Part shown: piece by piece, positions 7,942-46,635 of the stretch
Position numbering within the stretch: position 1 is the first letter of the stretch
Layout: the number at the start of each line of letters is the position of its first letter
From: a virus
IMG/VR virus record: IMGVR_UViG_3300045242_000006
Coordinates: 1-64,000 of that record
Length of the DNA: 64,000 nt
Direction: 5' to 3' (one strand)
Program-made: the position numbers and the translations under genes
The notes under the pieces: generated by a model
What the model saw: the letters and a program-made list of their open reading frames with translations, nothing else
Told to the model about the DNA's origin: nothing
Database searches by the model: none

Positions 7942-9834
7942 TCAATACTTAGGCTCATAACCACCATCACGACTATCACCTTCTGCATCCTGACCTCTCT
8001 GGTACAACTCAGCGGCTTGCGGATTCCGGTCAAGGTAGTCCTCAAGATCGTGCACAGTGTGAGTTGCATTGTCATAGTAATATTTACCAGCATTAGGACT
8101 TGTGTTGCCTGTCCACCGGCACTTAGTCATCTTCATACTGGTGATATTTCTTGTGATTTCACACTCTGCTTCTTTGTTACGTGTGAACAACAAGTTGCAT
8201 GCAGCAGACTTGAAGATAGCGGAAGAACCTTGGAAGTCTTCTTCAAACAGATCAGCACCAGCCGAGTTGGCCTTAGCACCACCAGAACTTTTACGAACGT
8301 GGTTGATCAGAATGAAAGATACATCGTGGCTCTTCACCATACCTTTGAGCCACTTCATGAAGACAGCTTGCTCTTCATTGCTCATGCCATCCATGATGTC
8401 TTGGAGAGGGTCAATGATGATCACTTTGCACTCACATGCAACGATCAGGTTCATGATCTTCTCTTTGATGTCATCCAGAGAGCCGTCACGCTCTTCAATC
8501 AAGTGCCAGCGGTGTGAACCATCCTCTTTGAAGAACAACTCATTTGCAGCGTCCTCAGCCTCTTGAGAGTTGAAGAATGCAATCTTCTCAGAGTCAGTCA
8601 TCAGGTCAATCTTCTTGCCCATATGACGCGACAACATCTTATTACCGTACTGTGCACAGTCACTTTCAAGCGAAAGAACCCCCGGCTTGTGTGGACTATT
8701 GAAAATCCAGTGATAGACACATTCGTCTACGTGTGTGGATTTACCAGTGCCAGATGCAGAGCCAAGGTTGACAATCACTTTCAGTGGAATACCACCGCCC
8801 ATCATCGCTTCAACACGGTGCATATAACGTGGCAATGGAATCTTAGGGATTACCGCTGCCTTCTTCATCAGACTCATCAGGCTACCAGAGCCTACGATAC
8901 CAGATGGAGTGTAAGGCATTGCCTTGTAGAAGTCTTGTACAAATTGGAAGCCTTTATCAGCCTTCAGGTATTCGTTCGGGTCTTTAAGAGCCATCTCCAT
9001 GATGTAGGCTTTACCCTTTGGCAGAGCTTTACAAACCTTCTCTGCTGCCTCACGTCCTGCTGCATCGTTATCCATACAGACGATGATACGTTCGAAACGG
9101 TTGAACCATTCATACTGACCTACAATCTGCTTCTCACAGCCTGTCTCACCGATGGTTGGAGACACAACAGGGATTGGATCATAGGATGTTCCGTTCTTTG
9201 CGTTGTCACGGTTTGTCTTGTCAGCAAGCATTTGGAATGCGGACAGTTGGTCAACTTCACCACCAACAATCAGACAGTATTTACCACGTGCACGGATAAA
9301 CTTGAACTGACCAAACAATTGACATTCACGCCCAGTTTCTCCCAATGCTCCTTTGAAGTCTTTAGGGAGTTGCCGACGTTTATATCCAGTGAGGATAAAA
9401 CCATGGTCGTTCTCAGCTTCCATTGTACAAGGATAATATTGAACTGCCACTTCACCTGTCGCTGTATTGATTTCATGACGAACACCAAATGCAGCAGTTG
9501 TGTCTTTACGGATACCACGCAACCCTTTTGAGTCAGTGGTTGTCACTTCTTTCATCTTTGCATGGATTTCGTCGTTAAACTCTGCTCCCACGATATTGTA
9601 CTCCTGCTCTTCTACCACACCATTTTCTTCCAGCCATTCCTCAGACGGAATAGTGAAACCACCGCAACCACCAAAACAATGGGCGCCTTTATGGCGCCCT
9701 ACATCATCACAACCATACACCATCAGGTTGTCACCAGTACGGTCATGTCCTTTCTCAACGCATTTAGGGCAAGCTACTTTTCCATACGTGTAAAGGTCAA
9801 TGCCGTACTTCTCTGCTAATTCTAAACTTGTCAA
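7942..9834 (-). CDS. DNA primase-helicase (T7 gp4-like)
   Basis: N-terminal Zn finger CPKC...HCFGGC, TOPRIM GEVD/MDNDAAG, Walker A SASGTGKS, DnaB-like IIDPL and HVRK. Confidence 0.93.
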   Translation of the reverse strand: MTSLELAEKYGIDLYTYGKVACPKCVEKGHDRTGDNLMVYGCDDVGRHKGAHCFGGCGGFTIPSEEWLEENGVVEEQEYNIVGAEFNDEIHAKMKEVTTTDSKGLRGIRKDTTAAFGVRHEINTATGEVAVQYYPCTMEAENDHGFILTGYKRRQLPKDFKGALGETGRECQLFGQFKFIRARGKYCLIVGGEVDQLSAFQMLADKTNRDNAKNGTSYDPIPVVSPTIGETGCEKQIVGQYEWFNRFERIIVCMDNDAAGREAAEKVCKALPKGKAYIMEMALKDPNEYLKADKGFQFVQDFYKAMPYTPSGIVGSGSLMSLMKKAAVIPKIPLPRYMHRVEAMMGGGIPLKVIVNLGSASGTGKSTHVDECVYHWIFNSPHKPGVLSLESDCAQYGNKMLSRHMGKKIDLMTDSEKIAFFNSQEAEDAANELFFKEDGSHRWHLIEERDGSLDDIKEKIMNLIVACECKVIIIDPLQDIMDGMSNEEQAVFMKWLKGMVKSHDVSFILINHVRKSSGGAKANSAGADLFEEDFQGSSAIFKSAACNLLFTRNKEAECEITRNITSMKMTKCRWTGNTSPNAGKYYYDNATHTVHDLEDYLDRNPQAAELYQRGQDAEGDSRDGGYEPKY

Positions 9835-10004
9835 GCAGTTCCCTCCAGAATTGTAACTTTAACAGATAGTGAGCAAGACTCTTTATAGTCTTCATACAAT
9901 CTGTACTTTGCATCAACTGCATCAGTGTGTTTGTCGAATACAAGAGTTTGGCAACAAATCGACTCATTATGGTACTTAACAGTTACGAATAGTGTTGTGC
10001 TCAT
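9831..10004 (-). CDS. hypothetical protein (57 aa)
   Basis: MSTTLFVTVKY... overlaps both neighbours by 4 nt. Confidence 0.5.
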   Translation of the reverse strand: MSTTLFVTVKYHNESICCQTLVFDKHTDAVDAKYRLYEDYKESCSLSVKVTILEGTA

Positions 10005-10333
10005 GCTGCTCTGGCCTCCGTATAAGTTTGTTCCCAGATCGAAGTGCTACCCGGTGTACCACCGCCCGGTGGGGTTCCATCAGGACTTCCTGACGGTCCT
10101 GTAGGAGGCTTTGGTTTGTCATCAGGCTTAGCACGTGCCCTAGCTCCATGTAAGACGCCGGGAATCACAGCCTCAAGGTCCAGCGTCACGGGCGTTGACA
10201 GGCTAAACCCATCAGGAGTTTCACGCACTGCAAACTGGGTTAGCTGAGTCAGAACTACGAAGTCCCAGACAGCCTGCAAACTTTTAAAAGGGATAATGAT
10301 TGTGTTGCCATTCATCACTGCGATACTGCTCAT
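10001..10333 (-). CDS. hypothetical protein with Pro/Gly-rich tail
   Basis: GGAGGTG RBS; MSSIAVMNG... Confidence 0.6.
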   Translation of the reverse strand: MSSIAVMNGNTIIIPFKSLQAVWDFVVLTQLTQFAVRETPDGFSLSTPVTLDLEAVIPGVLHGARARAKPDDKPKPPTGPSGSPDGTPPGGGTPGSTSIWEQTYTEARAA

Positions 10334-10334
10334 A

Positions 10335-10517
10335 TCACACCACCTCCACTTCATCAAAAGCAAACCAGAGCACATCCTCATCATTCTCTATGTCTTCGCT
10401 TAAAATGACACCGACGCCAGCCAATGTGAACACCACAACTACAGTGGCGAGCATGTTATACATATCAGAACTACGATTTACAATCTTAACACGATCACCA
10501 ATCTCAAACTTATTCAT
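10335..10517 (-). CDS. small KOW/SH3-like hypothetical protein
   Basis: KFEIGDRVKIV motif; AGGAG RBS. Confidence 0.6.
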   Translation of the reverse strand: MNKFEIGDRVKIVNRSSDMYNMLATVVVVFTLAGVGVILSEDIENDEDVLWFAFDEVEVV

Positions 10518-10622
10518 TCTACTCTCCTTTTGTGTTTGTCTTTACGACGGTATTTGGTGCGATCCCGTTCAATCTTAGGGATATTAACACGTCTATTTGG
10601 TCCTGCCAAGGGGTTTCTTATG

Positions 10623-10838
10623 TTAGAAGCCATCAGTGCCCAAGTCTCGTATCCAAGTGTGAGTAGCGGAGTCTACTATGTATTTCTCTGCGTGTGTAGC
10701 ATTCTCGATGTGGACCAAATAAACAGGACCATGAGTACCAGTAGCTGATTGTACACGTACTGAATACGAGCTGTCACGTGCAAGAACACGCTTTTCAAGC
10801 TCATCACACATGTTTAGGATTTGACCTTCAGTAATCAT
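10623..10838 (-). CDS. hypothetical protein
   Basis: AGGAG RBS after a TTGACA-16nt-TAGAAT promoter at ~10865-10892. Confidence 0.6.
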   Translation of the reverse strand: MITEGQILNMCDELEKRVLARDSSYSVRVQSATGTHGPVYLVHIENATHAEKYIVDSATHTWIRDLGTDGF

Positions 10839-10920
10839 TCTTCTCTCCTGTTGGTAATCCGAGCATTCTACACCACTCTAAGCCTTTGTCAACCCTCAGA
10901 TGTTCGATAAATCTCAGATG

Positions 10921-10950
10921 TGAAAAAGCCCCACACGTGAGTGCAGGGCT
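10921..10950 (-). terminator. intrinsic terminator after the putative ncRNA
   Basis: AAGCCCTGCAC...GTGTGGGGCTTTTT on the minus strand. Confidence 0.75.
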
Positions 10951-10961
10951 TAACTTGGTTT

Positions 10962-11276
10962 CATGCTTACGACAGCTCAGTGCATTGCCCGCGTCCGTCA
11001 CGTAGATACGTCTCAACGTTTATCTAAGATTTGGAGAAGCTTTTACCTTTACTACCTGAAACTTTAAAAGGTTGAGTATGCCATTCGGCTGACCTTTTAG
11101 CTTTGCAGCTTTCCTATTTGAACTTTGATCGTAGTCAATGCGTTGTGGGGTACTGCGACCCCAATCATATGCAAATGATTTAAGATTTTGGTTTAAAAGA
11201 CCATTCTTTAAATAGGCTGCCCGGATATACCCCCGAGCATTGGGTTACGTGAATTTAGGCAATTCGTCGCAGCATG
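10962..11276 (-). ncRNA. putative ~315-nt structured ncRNA with AAAG-type repeats, co-transcribed with the 205-aa gene
   Basis: Nested long-range helices CAUGCUGCGAC/GUCGUAAGCAUG, AUUGCCU/GGGCAAU, UCACGUA/UACGUGA and CAAUG/CGUUG; internal hairpins; terminator follows. Confidence 0.7.
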
Positions 11277-11296
11277 GGTAACTCGTTAAAACTCGC

Positions 11297-11914
11297 TTAC
11301 GCTTCGATCAGAGTCTTAGCGTTTGCCTCACTCAGAACGAAGTCTACTTCGAAGAGGAAGCCATTGATATCAGACTCCATCTTGGAAATCACAGCCTCGA
11401 CACCGTTAGGGTCTAGAGGGCTTGTAATGTTGGAAGCTGTGTACGGCTTGCTGATAGCATCAAGCTCTTCTTCAGTAGCTTTACGCTCTTTACCAACAGC
11501 AGTTTGAATCATGGTGTCGATACGTTGTTGCATTTGAACGTTGTTACGTTCTACAACAGTTCTCACTTGACCCAGTTGTTGTTGCAGGACAGACATTAGA
11601 GCACGCTCTTTGTCAATGCTACCCTTACGTTCAATGGCCTCAGCTACGCTCATATCAACACCGTTGATCGTCACTGTGGTAACAGCGTTTGAACGGATGA
11701 TAGCGGCCTTGACAGCTTGACGACGCTTGATCAGGTCTTGAACCGATTGTAGGTTAGACGTCAACAGGTTGGTTGCTGTCTGAAGGTCTTGGCCATTAGT
11801 GGTCTTGCCACCAACAGTTACTGTAGCGAATACAGTGTTACGAGTCGCTTTTTCAATACGATCGTTCAGCGATTTGATTTCAGCCAAAGCGCGTGTAATA
11901 GAAATCTGAGTCAT
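11297..11914 (-). CDS. helical/coiled-coil protein (resembles DIP1984/DUF6847-like family by recall)
   Basis: AAGGAG RBS and own promoter; ISITRALAEIK...SNAVT...VAEAI...LSEANA pattern. Confidence 0.7.
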   Translation of the reverse strand: MTQISITRALAEIKSLNDRIEKATRNTVFATVTVGGKTTNGQDLQTATNLLTSNLQSVQDLIKRRQAVKAAIIRSNAVTTVTINGVDMSVAEAIERKGSIDKERALMSVLQQQLGQVRTVVERNNVQMQQRIDTMIQTAVGKERKATEEELDAISKPYTASNITSPLDPNGVEAVISKMESDINGFLFEVDFVLSEANAKTLIEA

Positions 11915-11946
11915 CTTAATCTTCTCCTTTGATGTTTAATATGGTC

Positions 11947-11974
11947 ATTGTAGCAGGCTTTCGCCTGCTGTCAA
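11947..11974 (-). promoter_or_regulatory. sigma70-like promoter whose spacer is a perfect hairpin
   Basis: TTGACA-GCAGGCGAAAGCCTGC-TACAAT. Confidence 0.7.
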
Positions 11975-11979
11975 GCTCT

Positions 11980-12312
11980 TTATTCAGGCTTGTCGATCAA
12001 TTTGTACATGGTGTTACGTGTCTCGATGTACGTTTCGCCGTCAATCTCAACGATCTGCTTCACTGTGGAAGTGCGAACCTTGTCGCCATCACAGAAGATG
12101 CCACGAGAATCATTGAAGATGAAACCGTGAGCCACGGTGCTGCCGGGGAACATCTCATGGTCTAAACGCTGGAACACCATCTCAGCGACAAACTTGTCTT
12201 CTGGTTTTGCATCCAGTGGAAGGACACGCCAGCTACTATCACCAAAGAATTCACTTGTGAGATTCTTGTCACCACACATAATAAGTTCTTGCAAGTCTAC
12301 TGCACCGAACAT
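11980..12312 (-). CDS. hypothetical protein
   Basis: AAGGAG RBS, ATG at 12312. Confidence 0.65.
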   Translation of the reverse strand: MFGAVDLQELIMCGDKNLTSEFFGDSSWRVLPLDAKPEDKFVAEMVFQRLDHEMFPGSTVAHGFIFNDSRGIFCDGDKVRTSTVKQIVEIDGETYIETRNTMYKLIDKPE

Positions 12313-12322
12313 TGTATTCTCC

Positions 12323-12682
12323 TTAGTTTGCATTATTGAGGATTGCGAATGGATTGTCGTCAACCCAGATATCAACCCGAATATTTTGCTTCGCCATGTA
12401 CACTTGCTTAGCTTGGCCAGAAGTGTAGAACACTCCAAACCCCTTGTCAACAAGAAATTTCAAATCTTCTGGATGTGTCGTTGGTGTTCTCCACGTCACA
12501 ACAATGCAGTGATAGCCTTGACGTTCCAACAGGAGCATCACCTGAAGCCACGCACTCTCATTATCACTAATCGTTTCATCGTAATCAAAGGCTACAACCT
12601 TTGGTTCAGCCATCATAAAGTCAGTACGTGCCCAAGGATCAATCTTCCTGACAGAAGGGCTGATTTCAAGAGTGTGCTCCAT
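12323..12682 (-). CDS. HAD-superfamily phosphatase-like protein
   Basis: AFDYDETI (DxDxT), VTWR, K and VDDNP motifs. Confidence 0.7.
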   Translation of the reverse strand: MEHTLEISPSVRKIDPWARTDFMMAEPKVVAFDYDETISDNESAWLQVMLLLERQGYHCIVVTWRTPTTHPEDLKFLVDKGFGVFYTSGQAKQVYMAKQNIRVDIWVDDNPFAILNNAN

Positions 12683-12876
12683 TACTGAAACCTCAACATT
12701 GCATTTTCAAGTTCTCTGATTAGTCCTTCGCAACTTACTTTCTGGAGGATTCGGGTTGCATAATCCAAGTTGGATTCATGTGTTGATTGCGTCAAATTCA
12801 AATTCAAGTCTTGAAGAACGGTGACACGTTCACTCACGCGGAGCCTGTGGAATGCAACTGCTAATTCACGATTCAT
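12682..12876 (-). CDS. hypothetical protein
   Basis: Overlapping operon ORF. Confidence 0.55.
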   Translation of the reverse strand: MNRELAVAFHRLRVSERVTVLQDLNLNLTQSTHESNLDYATRILQKVSCEGLIRELENAMLRFQ

Positions 12877-13103
12877 TGTACTACCCTCCCTTCAAGGAAT
12901 TTACCAGTTACATTACCCATTCGGTATCTAATGTTGCCTACGATACAATTCACCTGATAGATCGTACCATCTTGAGTTGTTACATAGGAGACAACTCCAT
13001 TCTGCTTTAGACACGAATTAGTTGTAAATTCAATCTCATCCTGATCGAGTGCACAGCCAGAGATTAGTGTAGCTAAGACAACACTCAGAAGAATTCTTTT
13101 CAT
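12873..13103 (-). CDS. putative lipoprotein
   Basis: MKR + hydrophobic stretch + LISGC lipobox. Confidence 0.6.
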   Translation of the reverse strand: MKRILLSVVLATLISGCALDQDEIEFTTNSCLKQNGVVSYVTTQDGTIYQVNCIVGNIRYRMGNVTGKFLEGRVVQ

Positions 13104-13774: not shown

Positions 13775-14070
13775 CTCAGATTCCGCATATCCTAAATCAG
13801 TTTCGTATTGTCGAGATAAACCTATCCCAAGGCTCGCCATACGAATTTAATCGCCTAAGACGTGCCTTGGGGTCTATCTCATATGCTATCCTAAATTCAG
13901 ATCGCAAGCCGACGTCATGGGACGTTATAGATTGAGAGCCTTCCTTCTATACGAAGTCATCGCTGCACTGTTCTCTCATTCAACCTCAGCTACCCCAACA
14001 GCTTACTCTTCATAGGGCGTGTATCCGCAGGACGGTGAGTGAAGCCCTTCGGCTGACATGTCTCTCTGCG
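13775..14070 (-). ncRNA. structured element copy A (homologous to 47700-48012)
   Basis: Shared blocks and compensatory stems versus copy B; G-U pairs work only on the minus strand; lies directly downstream of a leftward promoter. Confidence 0.7.
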
Positions 14071-14078
14071 ACGTGTGC

Positions 14079-14138
14079 ATTGTTACACGACATCCCCTGC
14101 CTGTCAACCCTTGACAAAAACAATATCCGTGATAGACT
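14079..14138. promoter_or_regulatory. back-to-back divergent sigma70-like promoters
   Basis: TGTCAA-CCC-TTGACA at 14102-14116; leftward -10 AACAAT, rightward -10 TAGACT. Confidence 0.65.
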
Positions 14139-14160
14139 GACTCTTTTTCATGGAGGTTGT

Positions 14161-14805
14161 ATGAGTTTAATAGAAATCAATGGAGTAAGCAAGACGAGGG
14201 TTGAGTGGTGTCAGGAGTACGGTATCGACACAAGCACGGTGTCACAAAGAATGAAACGTCTCGGCTTGACATTAGTAGAGGCAATCACTCACGTCAAGCC
14301 GAAAGCTGAGTCCACCTTAAAGAAAGAAGCGAGAAAGGCAAAGAAGTTGACGGATGAGCCTCTGGCACCAATTCCGGGTTTTAAGAATTATGCTGTCACC
14401 GAGGCAGGTATAGTTTGGAATGTGAAGCTCCGGCGTCCGCTGGTCAGCTCCTTGTCAGATACTACCCCTTATGCAAGAGTAAATCTTAAAGGGGAGGCGC
14501 TATATGTACATAGGCTGGCTTGTATGGCATGGCACGGAGAGCCTGAAGAGGATTTGAACGTGGTCGATCATATAGACATGGATTACCTCAACAACCACAA
14601 AGACAATTTGAGGTGGACAGATATGAAAGGTAACGCCGATAATAGGAAGGACACGGTTTGGACCTTGTATGGAGGAGAGAAAGTCAGACTTCAAGACCTC
14701 CTCATGAGTAAGGGTTTCATGCCGCGTACCACGGAATATCAAAGATATCGGTACAGAATCCACGTCATGGGTTTACCAGCAGATAAGGTTTTGGAGTGGA
14801 TTTAA
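14161..14805 (+). CDS. HNH homing endonuclease (NUMOD4/HNH_3-like)
   Basis: IPGFKNYAVT, YVHRL and VVDHIDMDYLNNHKDNLRW; GGAGG RBS before 14161. Confidence 0.85.
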   Translation: MSLIEINGVSKTRVEWCQEYGIDTSTVSQRMKRLGLTLVEAITHVKPKAESTLKKEARKAKKLTDEPLAPIPGFKNYAVTEAGIVWNVKLRRPLVSSLSDTTPYARVNLKGEALYVHRLACMAWHGEPEEDLNVVDHIDMDYLNNHKDNLRWTDMKGNADNRKDTVWTLYGGEKVRLQDLLMSKGFMPRTTEYQRYRYRIHVMGLPADKVLEWI

Positions 14806-42858: not shown

Positions 42859-42933
42859 TGGAGCGGATAGGGAATTTCGAAATCCCGACGAACAGCTTGG
42901 AAGGCTGACACTCTGCCTCTGAGTTATACCCGC
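42859..42933 (-). tRNA. tRNA-Gly(TCC)
   Basis: Cloverleaf, loop CTTCCAA, encoded CCA. Confidence 0.9.
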
Positions 42934-42940
42934 TTTAATT

Positions 42941-43029
42941 TGGTGCCCCTAGTGAGATTCGAACTCACAACACCTTCCGGCGTGCTGGCTTCTAAGACCA
43001 GTGCGTACTGCCAATACCGCCACAGGGGC
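42941..43029 (-). tRNA. tRNA-Leu(TAG)
   Basis: Loop CTTAGAA, long variable arm, CCA. Confidence 0.9.
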
Positions 43030-43039
43030 AAAACTTTTT

Positions 43040-43112
43040 TGGTGTGAGGCTGGGTACTGACCCCAATCCTTCGTTTCACAGACGAAGTTCCTAACCATCG
43101 AACTACCTCACC
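43040..43112 (-). tRNA. tRNA-His(GTG), atypical T loop
   Basis: Loop CTGTGAA, G-1 present, CCA. Confidence 0.75.
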
Positions 43113-43121
43113 ATTGTTTCT

Positions 43122-43271
43122 TTAAATCCATTCTTCTTCAGAGTGAATTTCTTCAAGTGCTTCTTTGAGGGTCTGTTTATCTAGACTCCTCTCTTTAAAG
43201 TAAACCCTTTCACAACAACCACAAGGCATCACAGCAAACTTCTTCTTGGTTTGTTTTACTCGGACTTTCAT
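43122..43271 (-). CDS. hypothetical protein (49 aa) within the tRNA cluster
   Basis: AGGAG RBS; MKVRVKQTKKKFAVMPCGCCE... Confidence 0.5.
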   Translation of the reverse strand: MKVRVKQTKKKFAVMPCGCCERVYFKERSLDKQTLKEALEEIHSEEEWI

Positions 43272-43289
43272 TTCTACACTCCTATAATT

Positions 43290-43363
43290 TGGTGGACCGT
43301 CAGGGAGTCAAACCCTGCCTTTCGCCGTGCAAGGGCGACGAACTATCGAAATTCTTACAGCCC
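43290..43363 (-). tRNA. tRNA-Ala(TGC)
   Basis: Loop CTTGCAC, G3-U70 identity pair, CCA. Confidence 0.85.
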
Positions 43364-43472
43364 ATTATCGCGTCTACTGCCAGATGTTCCACTCCTACGC
43401 CGTAAGTGGTCGTGCTTGTGGCTGGAACGATAAGCTTGGGTATAAGCCCATATGCCACCTTTACAGTAAAAT

Positions 43473-43546
43473 TGGTCACTCGGGGTGGAGTCGAACCACC
43501 GCCACTTCGTTCCAAACAAAGTACGCTACCGTAACGCTTCCGAGAG
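43473..43546 (-). tRNA. tRNA-Pro(TGG)
   Basis: Loop TTTGGAA, CCA. Confidence 0.85.
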
Positions 43547-43568
43547 ATAAATCATTTACATCTTAAAT

Positions 43569-43657
43569 TGGTCCCGCTTGGTCGGAATCGAACCACGCAG
43601 CCAGAGGCAAGGCGTTTACAGCGCCCCGTAGCATCCCAGTGCTACTAGTCAATCGGG
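43569..43657 (-). tRNA. tRNA-Tyr(GTA), atypical
   Basis: Loop CTGTAAA, variable arm, extended D stem, C1-G72. Confidence 0.7.
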
Positions 43658-43663
43658 TTTGTT

Positions 43664-43740
43664 TGGCAGGCAATAGAGGATTCGAACCTCCCATCTTGTG
43701 ATTAACAGTCACAGACCAACACCTAGTCAGATCATTGCCT
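43664..43740 (-). tRNA. tRNA-Asn(GTT)
   Basis: Loop CTGTTAA, canonical T arm, atypical D arm. Confidence 0.8.
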
Positions 43741-43808
43741 ATAATTCTGATAGAGATTATATTTATACAGCACACTCTATCTGGCTGTACACGTGGGGAG
43801 CACATGTT

Positions 43809-43890
43809 TGGTAGGCCGAGTTGTTGGATTCGAACCAACGTCACCACATCTTACGTGCGGTATCCTGAGCCTCTAGACGAAACTCGACAT
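43809..43890 (-). ncRNA. aberrant tRNA-like RNA (Glu-like body, loop CGUAAGA)
   Basis: Canonical D and T arms, 8-bp acceptor stem with CUACCA overhang, G instead of U33. Confidence 0.6.
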
Positions 43891-43893
43891 GTT

Positions 43894-43975
43894 TGGTAGC
43901 GAGTCCGTGAATCGAACACGTAAGCACTGGGATATGAACCCAGAGACAACACCAGTCAGTCTTAGCCGACTCGCC
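43894..43975 (-). tRNA. tRNA-Met(CAT), initiator-like stem, atypical D region
   Basis: CTGGG-TTCATAT-CCCAG anticodon arm, CCA. Confidence 0.75.
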
Positions 43976-43982
43976 ATTTATT

Positions 43983-44056
43983 TGGTTGCTCGTAAGTGAA
44001 TTGAACACCTCTCACTCGGTTATCAGCCGAACGCATTACCACTATGCTAACGAGCA
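43983..44056 (-). tRNA. tRNA-Ile(GAT)
   Basis: Loop CTGATAA, CCA. Confidence 0.88.
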
Positions 44057-44192
44057 ATTTGTTTGTATCCCTGCTGGCTCTCAACTGCTTTATCTTGAGC
44101 CATTACCATCCGATCAAAGATGTATCACCTTCGTTTCCCGCAACCTTTTAAAAGCAGTAAAAGGAAGCTTCGTATCCGGCTCACAGGCGATT

Positions 44193-44267
44193 TGGTAGTC
44201 ACTAGTGGGATCGAACCACTCTAAAAGGCTTCGTAGACCTTTGCCTAATCCAATCGGCCAAGCGACT
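44193..44267 (-). tRNA. tRNA-Arg(ACG)
   Basis: Loop CTACGAA, CCA. Confidence 0.88.
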
Positions 44268-44273
44268 ATTATT

Positions 44274-44347
44274 TGGTGCCCCATCACAGAATCGAACTGC
44301 GTTCTCAGCGTTACAAAGGCCGAGTAATACCAATATACTAAAAGGGC
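44274..44347 (-). tRNA. tRNA-Thr(TGT)
   Basis: Loop TTTGTAA, CCA. Confidence 0.85.
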
Positions 44348-44414
44348 GGAATTCTTAGGAGCTATAACGTGCCCGAGACGTACAGTATTTAGGGGCTACT
44401 GTAAAGGCCAGCTT

Positions 44415-44489
44415 TGGCGGTCCTACGGAGAATCGAACTCCGTTCCCTCGCTAGACAGGCGAGTATAATAACCGTTATACGATAAGACC
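44415..44489 (-). tRNA. tRNA-Asp(GTC)
   Basis: Loop CTGTCTA, G73, CCA. Confidence 0.9.
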
Positions 44490-44493
44490 AAAT

Positions 44494-44569
44494 TGGAGCA
44501 GTTGACCGGATTCGAACCGGCGTCTTCTTGGTTGAAAGCCAAGCATCCTATCCGCTAGACGACAACTGC
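44494..44569 (-). tRNA. tRNA-Glu(TTC)
   Basis: Loop CTTTCAA, CCA. Confidence 0.9.
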
Positions 44570-44976
44570 AAAATTCCTGCATGTACCTTCCGATGGCAAT
44601 TAGAGCAAAGGATGACACATTTTCTAATCTCTGCCTTTAACGTGTTTGTTGAGTACGTTAATAGGTTACTTGGGTTTGCATCTTTGCCAGATGGATCAGT
44701 GTGATGAAGGTCCAAAGCTACTGGCTCTTTCTCACAGCAAACCAAACATCCGAAAAATGACTTGAACCGTCTCATTAAGTTTCTGTTGTACTCTCTTGTC
44801 TCGGCATTTCTTGCTTTGATAGAGCTTCTACGATTCTCGTTTGTGACGTAACCACTATTATTCTGTGCTTTCTGACAATCACGACACCTTGTCTGTAGTC
44901 CATCAGGCTTAACCTTATTCTTATTGAACTCAGACCGAGGCTTTAACTCATCACAGACTTTGCAGTGTTTTGTCAT
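44548..44976 (-). CDS. HNH endonuclease within the tRNA cluster
   Basis: CKVC/CRDC Zn finger, LDLHH and CVILCSNCHRKVH. Confidence 0.8.
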   Translation of the reverse strand: MTKHCKVCDELKPRSEFNKNKVKPDGLQTRCRDCQKAQNNSGYVTNENRRSSIKARNAETREYNRNLMRRFKSFFGCLVCCEKEPVALDLHHTDPSGKDANPSNLLTYSTNTLKAEIRKCVILCSNCHRKVHAGILQLSSSG

Positions 44977-45098
44977 TTGCCGCTGACAGGGTGTTTGTCT
45001 TTGCGGGCTTTGTTCGGATGACGACCTTTGCTATCTTTCAAGCGAGTCTTATCAACCGGAGTGTGTTCTTTTGTTGCATCGTATGGACGTTGTGCCAT
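44973..45098 (-). CDS. small basic protein (41 aa)
   Basis: AAGGAG RBS; MAQRPYDATKEH...; ATGA overlap with the HNH gene. Confidence 0.55.
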   Translation of the reverse strand: MAQRPYDATKEHTPVDKTRLKDSKGRHPNKARKDKHPVSGK

Positions 45099-45190
45099 TT
45101 CGTTTCTCCTTAATGTCTAGTTCATATGAGTATTTAAACACGACAATTGTACATTGTCAAGCGTTTATTTAAAATTATTTGCACTATCTT

Positions 45191-45265
45191 TGGTAGACCT
45201 GCTTGGGATCAAACCAAGACTAACTCTTTAGAAGAGAGTTGTGCGATTCACTACACTACAAGTCC
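45191..45265 (-). tRNA. tRNA-Arg(TCT)
   Basis: Loop CTTCTAA, CCA. Confidence 0.85.
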
Positions 45266-45271
45266 AATGTT

Positions 45272-45344
45272 TGGCGGGCACCCTTCGATTCGAACGAAGC
45301 TGGAAGTGATTTGGAGTCACGACTGGTCGCCAAGACCGACACCC
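45272..45344 (-). tRNA. tRNA-Trp(CCA), short D arm
   Basis: Loop CTCCAAA, G73, CCA. Confidence 0.75.
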
Positions 45345-45351
45345 CTTAATA

Positions 45352-45481
45352 CGGTTGCAAGTGAGGAAGGATTTGAACCTTCTCATTGTGAGGCGCATGC
45401 TTCCTCAGTGACGAAATCAAACAGAAATCCTTACCTCTATTCCGGGTTACGCTCCCGCTCTACTCCCATAGTCACTTGCAA
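45352..45481 (-). ncRNA. ~127-nt tRNA-like RNA 1
   Basis: 10-bp terminal stem TTGCAAGTGA/TCACTTGCAA and T arm GAAGG-TTCAAAT-CCTTC, with an enlarged interior. Confidence 0.6.
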
Positions 45482-45581
45482 ATTCGAAGGAGACATTTAT
45501 AACACGCAGTCTCCAGTGCGTCAATCAGAGAGTTGGTTTCTCTGTCACATCCCAAGGCGCTTGAAGCTTCAGGTTGTTCTG

Positions 45582-46136
45582 TTAGTAACCGTATCCATCG
45601 AATGGATTAGCGGTTACAGCTAAAGGTGCAAAGCCCATGCTCTGGAATTTATCAGTTGTAATCTTCCAGCCGAGACGCACCCTCAAATCTTTCGTATCAG
45701 ACCAAGGCTTAACAAGGTAGTACTCAAATCCTACAAGCTTGTCTCCATCTTTGAGCTTGGAGAGCATATACCCCGGCACTTTAACCTTATCAGAGATATC
45801 AGGGTTTCCTGTCGTCTCAATTGTAAACGACTCTGACCAAGATAGTCCAGTCATTTTTGAATATCCGTACAAGGGATTCCTGAACATCCAGAATACTCTA
45901 TTTACGTAACCTTTGATGCCAGTCGTTTCATTTACGAACGGTGCACGCGTAGTGACATATCCTTCATCACCTTGTGGTGGGTTGTCATAGGTTCCCCAGA
46001 TCCAGCCCCACGTGTACTCAGACTTATCATGGTCTTGCTCTCTTGTAAAGGCAGCAATGACTGGTGCTGTAAATGGTACAGTAAGTGTTAGGATAATGTC
46101 CAGTACAGAAAGTACAAACCACTTCAGATAAATCAT
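45582..46136 (-). CDS. conserved phage hypothetical protein with N-terminal TM
   Basis: GAGGT RBS; WGTYDNP..GD, WMFRNPLYG and RLGWK. Confidence 0.7.
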   Translation of the reverse strand: MIYLKWFVLSVLDIILTLTVPFTAPVIAAFTREQDHDKSEYTWGWIWGTYDNPPQGDEGYVTTRAPFVNETTGIKGYVNRVFWMFRNPLYGYSKMTGLSWSESFTIETTGNPDISDKVKVPGYMLSKLKDGDKLVGFEYYLVKPWSDTKDLRVRLGWKITTDKFQSMGFAPLAVTANPFDGYGY

Positions 46137-46151
46137 AAATACCTCTTTGTT

Positions 46152-46226
46152 TGGCAGCGGGTGAAAGGATCGAACTTTCGTAACTGGATTCAAAGTCCAG
46201 CGCCTGTGCCACTCGGCCAACCCGCA
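46152..46226 (-). tRNA. tRNA-Gln(TTG)
   Basis: Loop CTTTGAA, G73, CCA. Confidence 0.9.
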
Positions 46227-46232
46227 ATTAAT

Positions 46233-46306
46233 TGGTGCTCAATGAAGGAATTGAACCTCCGTCTGCTGCGTGTAAAGCAGCGGCCCTACCATTAGACGAA
46301 TCGAGC
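46233..46306 (-). tRNA. tRNA-Val(TAC)
   Basis: Loop TTTACAC, CCA. Confidence 0.9.
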
Positions 46307-46312
46307 TTTGTA

Positions 46313-46389
46313 TGGTTGGCCCTCTGAGATTCGAACTCAGAACATTCTCCTTTTGAGAGAGACGCGACTACCAATTGCGCCAAGGGCCA
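46313..46389 (-). tRNA. tRNA-Leu(CAA), short variable arm
   Basis: Loop CTCAAAA, A73, CCA. Confidence 0.85.
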
Positions 46390-46409
46390 TCTGTTTGGTG
46401 TTTCTAATT

Positions 46410-46535
46410 TGGTACGACAAGTAGGAATCGAACCTACTATACATCAGCCGCTAAGCTGATCTTAATGAGCAAAAGACCTATACCACGCCTATAGGAAGTT
46501 TCGAACCCTCCACAACTTGTGTCTCATCTTGCCGT
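46410..46535 (-). ncRNA. ~127-nt tRNA-like RNA 2
   Basis: Acceptor ACGGCAA/TTGTCGT + ACCA and T arm GTAGG-TTCGATT-CCTAC, with an enlarged interior. Confidence 0.65.
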
Positions 46536-46541
46536 ATTGTT

Positions 46542-46635
46542 TGGCGGGTAGCAGAGGAGTCGAACCCCATCCGGCTCTCGCCAGAACCTAGTTTTCAAGA
46601 CTAGTCGCAGGACCAACCCCGCTGCATTACTACCC
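46542..46635 (-). tRNA. tRNA-Ser(TGA)
   Basis: Loop CTTGAAA, long variable arm, G73. Confidence 0.88.

Follow-up and report, generated by a model that had tools for sequence, protein, structure and literature searches.

In the TRAP/trp leader, HutP/hut mRNA and CsrA/CsrB-RsmZ systems, an oligomeric protein reads a regularly spaced short motif in single-stranded RNA. tmRNA-SmpB and Ro60-YrlA are ribonucleoproteins (RNPs) whose structured RNA has a tRNA-like module alongside pseudoknots or closing stems. The nearest published analogue in logic of the locus described here is VIPR, in which a phage-encoded RAMP protein, Vipr, acts together with an RNA, vrRNA (bioRxiv 10.64898/2026.04.26.720920). 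GOLLD and ROOL are reported to form RNA-only assemblies (PMC12286853). The locus in question is a unit at positions 10921-11974 of a 64,000-nucleotide stretch of phage DNA (positions 1 to 64,000 of IMG/VR record IMGVR_UViG_3300045242_000006; hereafter, the window), in which a gene for a 205-residue helical protein is followed by a 315-nt non-coding stretch. A first-pass annotation, made from the letters of the window alone, had presented the two as a stand-alone module that may form an RNP. Judged by comparison with its relatives, the unit is a member of a widespread phage module that is in none of the catalogues searched, and conservation and structure prediction suggest that its protein and RNA probably form a functional RNP.

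Like VIPR, the module is a phage-encoded pair of a small protein and a non-coding RNA, and its RNA resembles vrRNA in having short tandem repeats with fixed and variable positions as well as a conserved 3' structure including a pseudoknot. On the other hand, Vipr has an RRM/RAMP fold with a G-loop and thumb, whereas our AlphaFold2 (AF2) model consists of five helices and contains no RRM. The vrRNAs are ~100-nt RNAs, often several per locus, with 9-16 YNNGG pentamers whose NN positions are hypervariable (10.64898/2026.04.26.720920), whereas the present module has AAAGNUY heptamers in one closed RNA of ~300 nt per genome, with a tract that is not hypervariable among close relatives. Since protein fold, repeat unit and variability all differ, the module is not a VIPR. 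Concerning TRAP, HutP and CsrA, their folds are unrelated to that of the 205-residue protein and their motifs and periods are different. Their RNAs are 5' leaders or sponge small RNAs and have no pseudoknotted clamp, and here we only infer binding. A likeness to tmRNA-SmpB and Ro60-YrlA is seen in some relatives, whose RNA embeds a domain scoring 49-65 bits against the Rfam tRNA model, but ARAGORN gave no tmRNA, Rfam gave neither tmRNA nor Y RNA, and the partner protein is unrelated. GOLLD and ROOL are, like the present RNA, large structured phage-carried RNAs often found beside tRNA genes (PMC12286853), but they have no Rfam match to it, are 2-3 times longer and have neither a heptamer tract nor a dedicated protein partner. 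A type III toxin-antitoxin system (ToxIN-like, with an endoribonuclease toxin and tandem antitoxin repeats of ~34-45 nt) was considered and rejected in view of the lack of a PADLOC match, the 7-nt repeat unit and the closed pseudoknotted fold. Our literature search on DUF6847, DIP1984, phrog_1491, phage T5 non-coding RNA and heptamer-repeat RNAs found no description of the pair, and neither the main text of the Minerva preprint nor that of the catalogue of 10,006 csRNAs mentions it.

Linkage of the RNA to the protein gene

The two components of the unit are the following.

11297-11914, minus strand: gene for the 205-residue all-helical protein (phrog_1491), an open reading frame (ORF) beginning with ATG
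10962-11276, minus strand: structured non-coding RNA of 315 nt, recognised by covariation and by its conservation relative to third codon positions

Homologues of the RNA were searched for with an nhmmer profile, seeded with an alignment of close relatives and iterated over the 700 nt downstream of 85 loci encoding homologues of the protein. After the profile had converged, an RNA homologue was found in this interval and on the same strand at 81 of the 85 loci. Upstream regions (0/81) and reverse complements (0/84) gave no match, and regions further downstream gave one (1/82). This single match turned out to be a displaced copy in a locus earlier counted as a miss, and the RNA-linked loci therefore number 82 of 85. 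At the three others (L127, L128 and L173 in our numbering of loci), neither a recognisable RNA nor a period-7 signal was present within 700 nt. The presence of an RNA downstream of homologues, which the first-pass annotation had proposed to look for, was thus borne out.

On the complete phage genome the family profile matches exactly once, at 10962-11276 (E 7e-65). The window contains each part by which the module is defined: the protein of ~205 residues and then, on the same strand, a closing stem, a tract of AAAGNUY heptamers and a 3' AAAUC(C/U)...GCUG pseudoknot. Relatives of the protein, almost all of 200-215 residues, occur in 745 GenBank phage records and form 2184 clusters at 50% identity (E<=1e-3). 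The RNA is carried by T5-like phages, Vequintavirinae, Bacillus phages and one Bacillota metagenome-assembled genome (MAG). In four distant annotated phages, T5-like Bf23, Pseudomonas SYP, Bacillus Bc431v3 and Erwinia Hena1, 400-500 nt without annotation come after the gene, and the core of this gap aligns with the tract of the window. A search with the single Bc431v3 protein gave two MAG loci, and on the Bacillota MAG contig the RNA lies behind the gene. Gene and RNA are kept at 88-100% identity in 441 T5-like records, none of which annotates the RNA. The pattern GACGGACGCNGNCAATGC occurs at 76 loci in IMG/VR, many of them likely by chance (16 specified bases), and was not used as support.

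In the T5-like Salmonella phages MT653145.1 and PP438655.1 (H131 and H134), the region of gene and RNA aligns in two pieces, and a homing/HNH endonuclease is annotated there; from the alignment, this looks like an insertion.

A closed and doubly pseudoknotted RNA

When the window RNA was folded alone, its minimum free energy (MFE) fold was only marginally beyond shuffles (z -1.76), and the case for a structured RNA therefore rests on comparison with relatives. The regions downstream of the gene in 13 relatives align across the full 315 nt with obvious compensatory changes, and RNAalifold recovers four helices, P1-P4. Covariation was counted in a broader alignment of 23 distinct sequences against a specified structure comprising these four nested helices and two pseudoknots (RNA index i = 11277 - coordinate). 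As a result, 89.7% of cells were paired, versus 33-46% when the 3' partners were slid by 1-3 columns. Changes on both sides were observed in 27 of the 41 pairs, and the observed covariation score was reached by 0 of 500 shuffles. The elements of the RNA are listed below; the covariation is that in the 23 sequences.

11265-11276, minus strand: P1, 5' strand, partner 10962-10974; 99.3% of cells paired, 7 of 12 pairs changed on both sides
10962-10974, minus strand: P1, 3' strand, with one bulged A; covariation
11258-11263, minus strand: P2, 5' strand, partner 10984-10989; 98.6% paired, 4 of 6 pairs changed on both sides
10984-10989, minus strand: P2, 3' strand; covariation
11247-11252, minus strand: P3, 5' strand, partner 10998-11003; 87% paired, 5 of 6 pairs changed on both sides
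10998-11003, minus strand: P3, 3' strand; covariation
11218-11239, minus strand: P4 hairpin; 7 of 8 pairs changed on both sides, 71% paired in the wider set, partly an alignment problem
about 11032-11136, minus strand: single-stranded heptad-repeat tract, A-rich, between the 5' domain and the 3' pseudoknot domain
11024-11028, minus strand: pseudoknot A, 5' strand CUUAG, partner CUGAG at 10976-10980; crosses P2 and P3
10976-10980, minus strand: pseudoknot A, 3' strand CUGAG; covariation
11008-11010, minus strand: pseudoknot B, 5' strand CGU, partner ACG at 10992-10994; crosses P3
10992-10994, minus strand: pseudoknot B, 3' strand ACG; covariation

Pseudoknot A is 100% paired in the 23 sequences, with CG/UA and GC/AU exchanges, and by our reading of the alignments it covaries in distant phages too. 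All three pairs of pseudoknot B are likewise 100% paired, the first being CG in 12, GC in 9 and AU in 2 sequences. Both pseudoknots were absent from the first-pass annotation, which had described four nested helices enclosing small hairpins. Three of those helices were recovered (99%, 99% and 87% paired); the other, CAAUG/CGUUG, was rejected, as it is paired in 50% of cells across relatives. The hairpins AAUCAU/AUGAUU and UGGGGU/ACCCCA do appear in the MFE fold, but the region in which they lie is variable and indel-rich. Two further pairings were tried. A local hairpin ACGU/ACGU (index 258-269) is 65% paired, and pseudoknot B accounts better for the covariation; an AACC/GGUU pairing (index 204-207 with 259-262), three pairs of which are invariant, was set aside. 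Taken as a whole, the annotation was right in the layout of the unit, three helices, the repeat tracts and a doubly occurring motif, and wrong in the fourth helix.

The doubly occurring motif, CCAAA(A)UCUUARAU, is found at 11178-11191 and 11022-11034, as had been reported. The second copy supplies pseudoknot A. The first copy lies in the variable 5' domain and is kept in the close clade only, and no partner was identified for it.

With respect to close relatives, identity in aligned RNA columns is 78-88%, versus 50-62% at third codon positions of the gene. RNA columns are thus more conserved than third codon positions, indicating that the non-coding stretch is under purifying selection. No credible ORF is present in 10962-11276. 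Rfam 15 gave no match to the RNA at E<=10, with three chance-level hits (E>1) in 10000-13000, and on the loci of 24 relatives it gave tRNAs only; RAGATH-27, ROOL, GOLLD, tmRNA, Y RNA and group I/II introns were not matched in the window or in these relatives. ARAGORN found no tmRNA in the phage. On these comparative grounds, the non-coding stretch is a real, conserved, closed and doubly pseudoknotted RNA. The alignments show the RNA ends clamped by three helices and two pseudoknots, which hold out a single-stranded loop of ~100 nt with about a dozen AAAGNUY heptamers.

The heptamer tract

The first half of the tract in the window reads AAAGUUC AAAUAGG AAAGCUG(C) AAAGCU AAAAGGU and is followed by a clade-specific insert, after which come UUUUAAA GUUUCAG GUAGUAA AGGUAAA AGCUUCU. 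The first-pass annotation had pointed out two A-rich periodic tracts here, and a period of seven was indeed detected. For the window copy the lag-7 autocorrelation is modest (0.398 versus 0.266 in shuffled sequences, z 3.1), a value that 4 of 2000 shuffles attain. The signal is much stronger in the family at large, represented by 62 distinct sequences (0.435 versus 0.292, z 25), with harmonics at 14 and 21; in 48 of the 62, no other lag scores higher than lag 7. Together with the covariation in 23 relatives, this answers the proposal that closing helices and repeats be looked for in homologues. The phase profile is A(.79) A(.84) A(.65) G(.52) N U(.79) Y(.86), that is, AAAGNUY.

The usual layout consists of seven heptamers, a short U-rich break and about five more. 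The length is 95-98 nt in 36 of 55 distinct sequences, which come from very different phages, and tracts above this length hold inserted hairpins, in the window at about 11073-11093. Between distant clades the AAAG part varies, and the heptamer core UYAAA is conserved. Among members of the Pseudomonas-phage clade, whose proteins differ by up to 26%, the first half of the tract hardly changes. We considered whether AGCUGCAAAGCU forms an AGCU-GCAA-AGCU hairpin of the GNRA type; this was rejected, as relatives break the pairing without compensation (G-G mismatches) and distant members keep the 7-nt register. No contiguous complementarity of the RNA to other parts of the phage genome exceeded chance, the longest match being 12 nt, the same as in shuffles.

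The 205-residue protein

The protein matches phrog_1491 over its full length (E 5e-72, residues 1-204 on profile positions 2-208 of 211). This family carries the label 'tail fiber protein', which we found in annotation records only. We rejected this identity: the gene has small early genes around it and a sigma-70 consensus promoter in front, and the model is a helical hairpin bundle like that of 3KDQ. No significant match to the protein was obtained in Pfam, NCBIfam or PADLOC. The AF2 model, based on an alignment of 53 sequences, is all-helical with a mean predicted local distance difference test (pLDDT) score of 95; the helices span residues 6-26, 44-78, 90-140, 148-162 and 172-200, with short strands or a small sheet at one end. 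Seven basic positions are conserved (R8, K14, R19, R65, K69, K97 and K145).

When two copies were predicted together, the ipSAE was 0.63, versus 0.09 for the best control. The runs share at least 97% of contacts, the partner has a pLDDT of at least 88, and the predicted interface is symmetric and runs along the long helices. In our calibration, the mark of 0.63 was reached by 20 of 30 solved homo-pairs and by 1 of 23 solved single chains. The prediction supports a symmetric homodimer.

The top structural match of the AF2 model, by two methods, is 3KDQ (DIP1984 from Corynebacterium diphtheriae). Foldseek gave E 2.9e-3 and a probability of 1.00, and VIA-align gave Z 9.8 over 151 of 152 residues at 20% identity, ~2 Z units over the next match. 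The profile match to 3KDQ is weak (E 0.086). In ESM Atlas, 16% of the members of the neighbouring cluster carry DUF6847 (score 0.89), which we take as a lead only. At E<=1, neither Pfam nor NCBIfam listed a DUF6847/DIP1984 model for the protein; of 53 family members, none matched DUF6847/DIP1984 at E<=0.01, and a search of the phage genome with PF20935 gave nothing at E<=10. A resemblance to DIP1984/DUF6847, noted in the first-pass annotation, therefore stands at the level of the fold and not at that of sequence models. Going by the model, the same fold as 3KDQ and a distant relationship to DIP1984 are probable; this is not proof, because helical proteins give inflated Z scores. Compared with the DIP1984 family (3KDQ; Pfam DUF6847, PF20935), the phage protein is ~50 residues longer, and for DIP1984 proteins we found no published RNA partner.

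tRNA genes, neighbours and expression

tRNA genes are present in the flanks (1.5-2.5 kb) of 33 of 74 distinct loci, and all are on the strand of the module. In tRNA-flanked relatives a tRNA gene frequently starts 10-30 nt past the 3' end of the RNA, and in Bacillus phages the protein gene directly follows an array of 20 tRNAs. The description of the unit as stand-alone and insulated thus applies to the window phage, but not to these 33 relatives, in which the pair stands among tRNA genes. In the distant members L132, L157 and L161, the RNA's own closing stem encloses a full tRNA-like cloverleaf, to which the Rfam tRNA model gives 49-65 bits, and in the L113 clade a canonical T-arm hairpin is kept. 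The window copy is without a tRNA-like domain. The cloverleaves (L132:2213-2286, L157:2238-2311 and L161:2203-2266) lie in the 5' domain, directly 5' of the heptamer tract, and ARAGORN calls one of the embedded domains a tRNA with an abnormal anticodon loop.

In Escherichia phage Bf23 the module is flanked by a gene for a cREC_REC (cyclic-phosphate-processing receiver) protein (E 9e-15) and one for an Rv2179c-like 3'-5' exoribonuclease domain (E 1e-7). Going by these domain matches, the surroundings may be an RNA-repair neighbourhood. The two genes are at L094:3576-3893 and L094:1488-2189, and that with the exoribonuclease domain is annotated as 'metallopeptidase'.

A freshwater metatranscriptome was the only RNA run to hold part of the stretch (8% of sampled words). 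Coverage of 10975-11135 and 11156-11281, that is, of the RNA, comes from two contigs of 151 nt, which derive from a relative (90-99% alike) and are the only ones on this 1.5-kb stretch; one of them runs 5' into an apparent tRNA 3' end with CCA. The ORF part was without cover, from which we draw no inference.

Layout of the unit and its surroundings

The window covers the first 64 kb of a Pseudomonas phage whose complete genome, 97,286 bp long, carries direct terminal repeats. Its closest kin in GenBank belong to Otagovirus and Flaumdravirus, two genera of Pseudomonas phages (VCM, KIL1-5, phiPsa374, Kremar and others), and share 72-78% nucleotide identity with it over the region. The whole unit is on the minus strand and runs from a sigma-70 promoter through the 205-residue gene and the non-coding stretch to an intrinsic terminator. 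Apart from the gene and the RNA, its features are the following.

11947-11974, minus strand: unit promoter, sigma-70-type, TTGACA-16-TACAAT with an extended -10 TG, 11 of 12 consensus matches
11924-11927, minus strand: ribosome-binding site GGAG, preceding the ATG of the 205-residue ORF
10921-10951, minus strand: intrinsic terminator, an 11-bp GC-rich stem at 10926-10951 with a UCAC loop, and U5 at 10921-10925
10865-10892, minus strand: promoter of the next unit, TTGACA-16-TAGAAT, 11 of 12 matches, marking the boundary

The stop codon is 20 nt from the start of P1 and of the RNA, and the RNA ends 11 nt before the terminator hairpin. The terminator has a stability of -17.4 kcal/mol (z -3.9), which was equalled by 0 of 200 shuffles; relatives keep a hairpin and T-run at this position with different stem sequences. 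The succession of promoter, ORF, non-coding stretch, terminator and next promoter is accordingly as first laid out, with 11 of 12 matches in the promoters. The 205-residue gene sits among small early genes beside the primase-helicase gene (7942-9834).

Some observations concern the wider region. In phage KIL4 the primase/helicase downstream of the module (L001:4347-4675 onward) is annotated as a join of two pieces, suggesting an intron or intein-like interruption. A 64-residue ORF at 12682-12876 on the minus strand matches GAAD (PF19976, E 1.2e-6), the GTPase-associated adaptor domain that is known from conflict systems. At 14035-14805 on the plus strand an ORF of the HNH_3 homing-endonuclease type lies on the opposite strand, where gene orientation switches.

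Discussion

We propose that the early gene for the ~205-residue helical protein would be transcribed by host RNA polymerase together with a ~300-nt, putatively stable RNA. The protein may be a symmetric dimer built on long helices, and such dimers would bind, several to an RNA, by recognising the conserved heptamer core UYAAA, giving a protein-loaded RNA that would be a ribonucleoprotein particle of fixed length. The first-pass annotation had supposed that an oligomer coats the periodic repeats cooperatively, and this is partly supported by the closed RNA, the repeat tract, the linkage to the protein and the predicted homodimer. More tentatively, the particle might act on tRNA or translation-linked RNA biology, on RNA damage, or on host defences attacking it. 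We consider such a role because of the same-strand tRNA arrays, the tRNA-like domain in variants and the RNA-end-processing genes flanking the module in T5-like phages. The fuller reading, that of an undescribed class of phage RNP in which a doubly pseudoknotted ruler with ~13 heptamers carries DIP1984-like dimers, travels with phage and some cellular tRNA arrays, and has a role in tRNA biology, RNA damage or defence, seems to us evenly balanced between true and false.

Several points weigh against an RNP of this kind. The dimer result is a matter of model confidence and not a measurement, and the protein is mildly acidic (pI 5.7; family median 5.8). The synteny of gene and RNA could reflect co-regulation instead of a physical complex. 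In the window phage the 19 tRNA genes (42859-46927, minus strand) are 31 kb from the module, and its neighbours are uninformative and include no RNA-repair genes, so that the link to tRNA is drawn from relatives. The metatranscriptome is a weak hint of RNA expression, since it consists of contigs only, these come from a relative, and the library may include DNA.

Taking into account that gene and RNA share a single promoter and a single terminator, that P1 begins just 20 nt after the stop codon, and that the RNA is always 3' of the same gene, it could be a cis-acting element of the 3' untranslated region, which stays on the mRNA and serves its stability or feedback on the upstream protein without a role in trans. 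We think this quite unlikely. The clamp, the pseudoknots and the fixed-length tract are conserved from phages of Bacillota to those of Proteobacteria and far exceed the needs of known 3' stabilisers. In many relatives tRNA genes lie 10-30 nt downstream, and the RNA would be excised by tRNA processing; some variants, moreover, embed a tRNA-like domain. Autoregulatory operators such as those of T4 gp32 and RegA are known at the 5' end, near the ribosome-binding site. A constrained single strand in which one short motif recurs about a dozen times would also suit a sponge or decoy that titrates a host RNA-binding protein or a nuclease directed at tRNA anticodon loops or A-rich RNA, with the phage protein protecting or loading the RNA. 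The UYAAA core resembles U33, a YAA anticodon and A37 of a 7-nt anticodon loop, and the location in tRNA arrays, the tRNA-like domains in variants and the RNA-end-processing neighbours in T5-like phages fit as well. This too we regard as unlikely: the heptamers form a contiguous single strand and not stem-closed loops, variation of the AAAG part between distant clades would demand a very general host target, and the near-constant co-occurrence of the partner protein suggests that this protein is the main ligand.

An RNA-only machine like ROOL or GOLLD, with the protein gene merely a conserved neighbour, would agree with a phage-borne RNA near tRNAs that has a complex pseudoknotted fold, considering that ROOL and GOLLD are reported to assemble as RNA only (PMC12286853). 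We judge it very unlikely. Across very distant phages, 81-82 of 85 loci keep the same gene order, strand and spacing, a constancy that is uncommon between unrelated genes when phage genomes are mosaic; the array of periodic single-stranded motifs has the look of a platform for binding protein, and Rfam shows no similarity to ROOL or GOLLD. Lastly, in a guide-like RNP analogous to VIPR, subunits would grip the conserved part of the repeat and the variable bases would read a target in a gapped code. The heptamers do have conserved (A, A, U, Y) and variable (4-5) positions, a conserved pseudoknotted 3' domain follows the tract as in vrRNAs (10.64898/2026.04.26.720920), and the module is phage-encoded. 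Nevertheless, the first half of the tract is almost invariant in the Pseudomonas-phage clade, unlike the hypervariable NN positions of vrRNA, there is a single RNA per genome, complementarity to the phage's own genome is no longer than in shuffles (12 nt), and the protein is helical and not a RAMP. We give this possibility hardly any credence.

At minimum, hundreds of phage annotations need correcting: a protein family of more than 2000 clusters at 50% identity, matched by no Pfam model, is routinely mislabelled 'tail fiber', and in 81-82 of 85 sampled loci it has a ~300-nt RNA partner without a match in Rfam. Phage groups that serve as models or in therapy carry the pair, namely T5-like phages, Vequintavirinae, Bacillus Bastille-like phages and Pseudomonas syringae biocontrol phages, and its presence in the model phage T5 makes the module directly testable with an E. 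coli host. If the protein and RNA do form an RNP, it would be a new type of phage RNA-protein machine and would provide the first functional lead for the DIP1984 fold.

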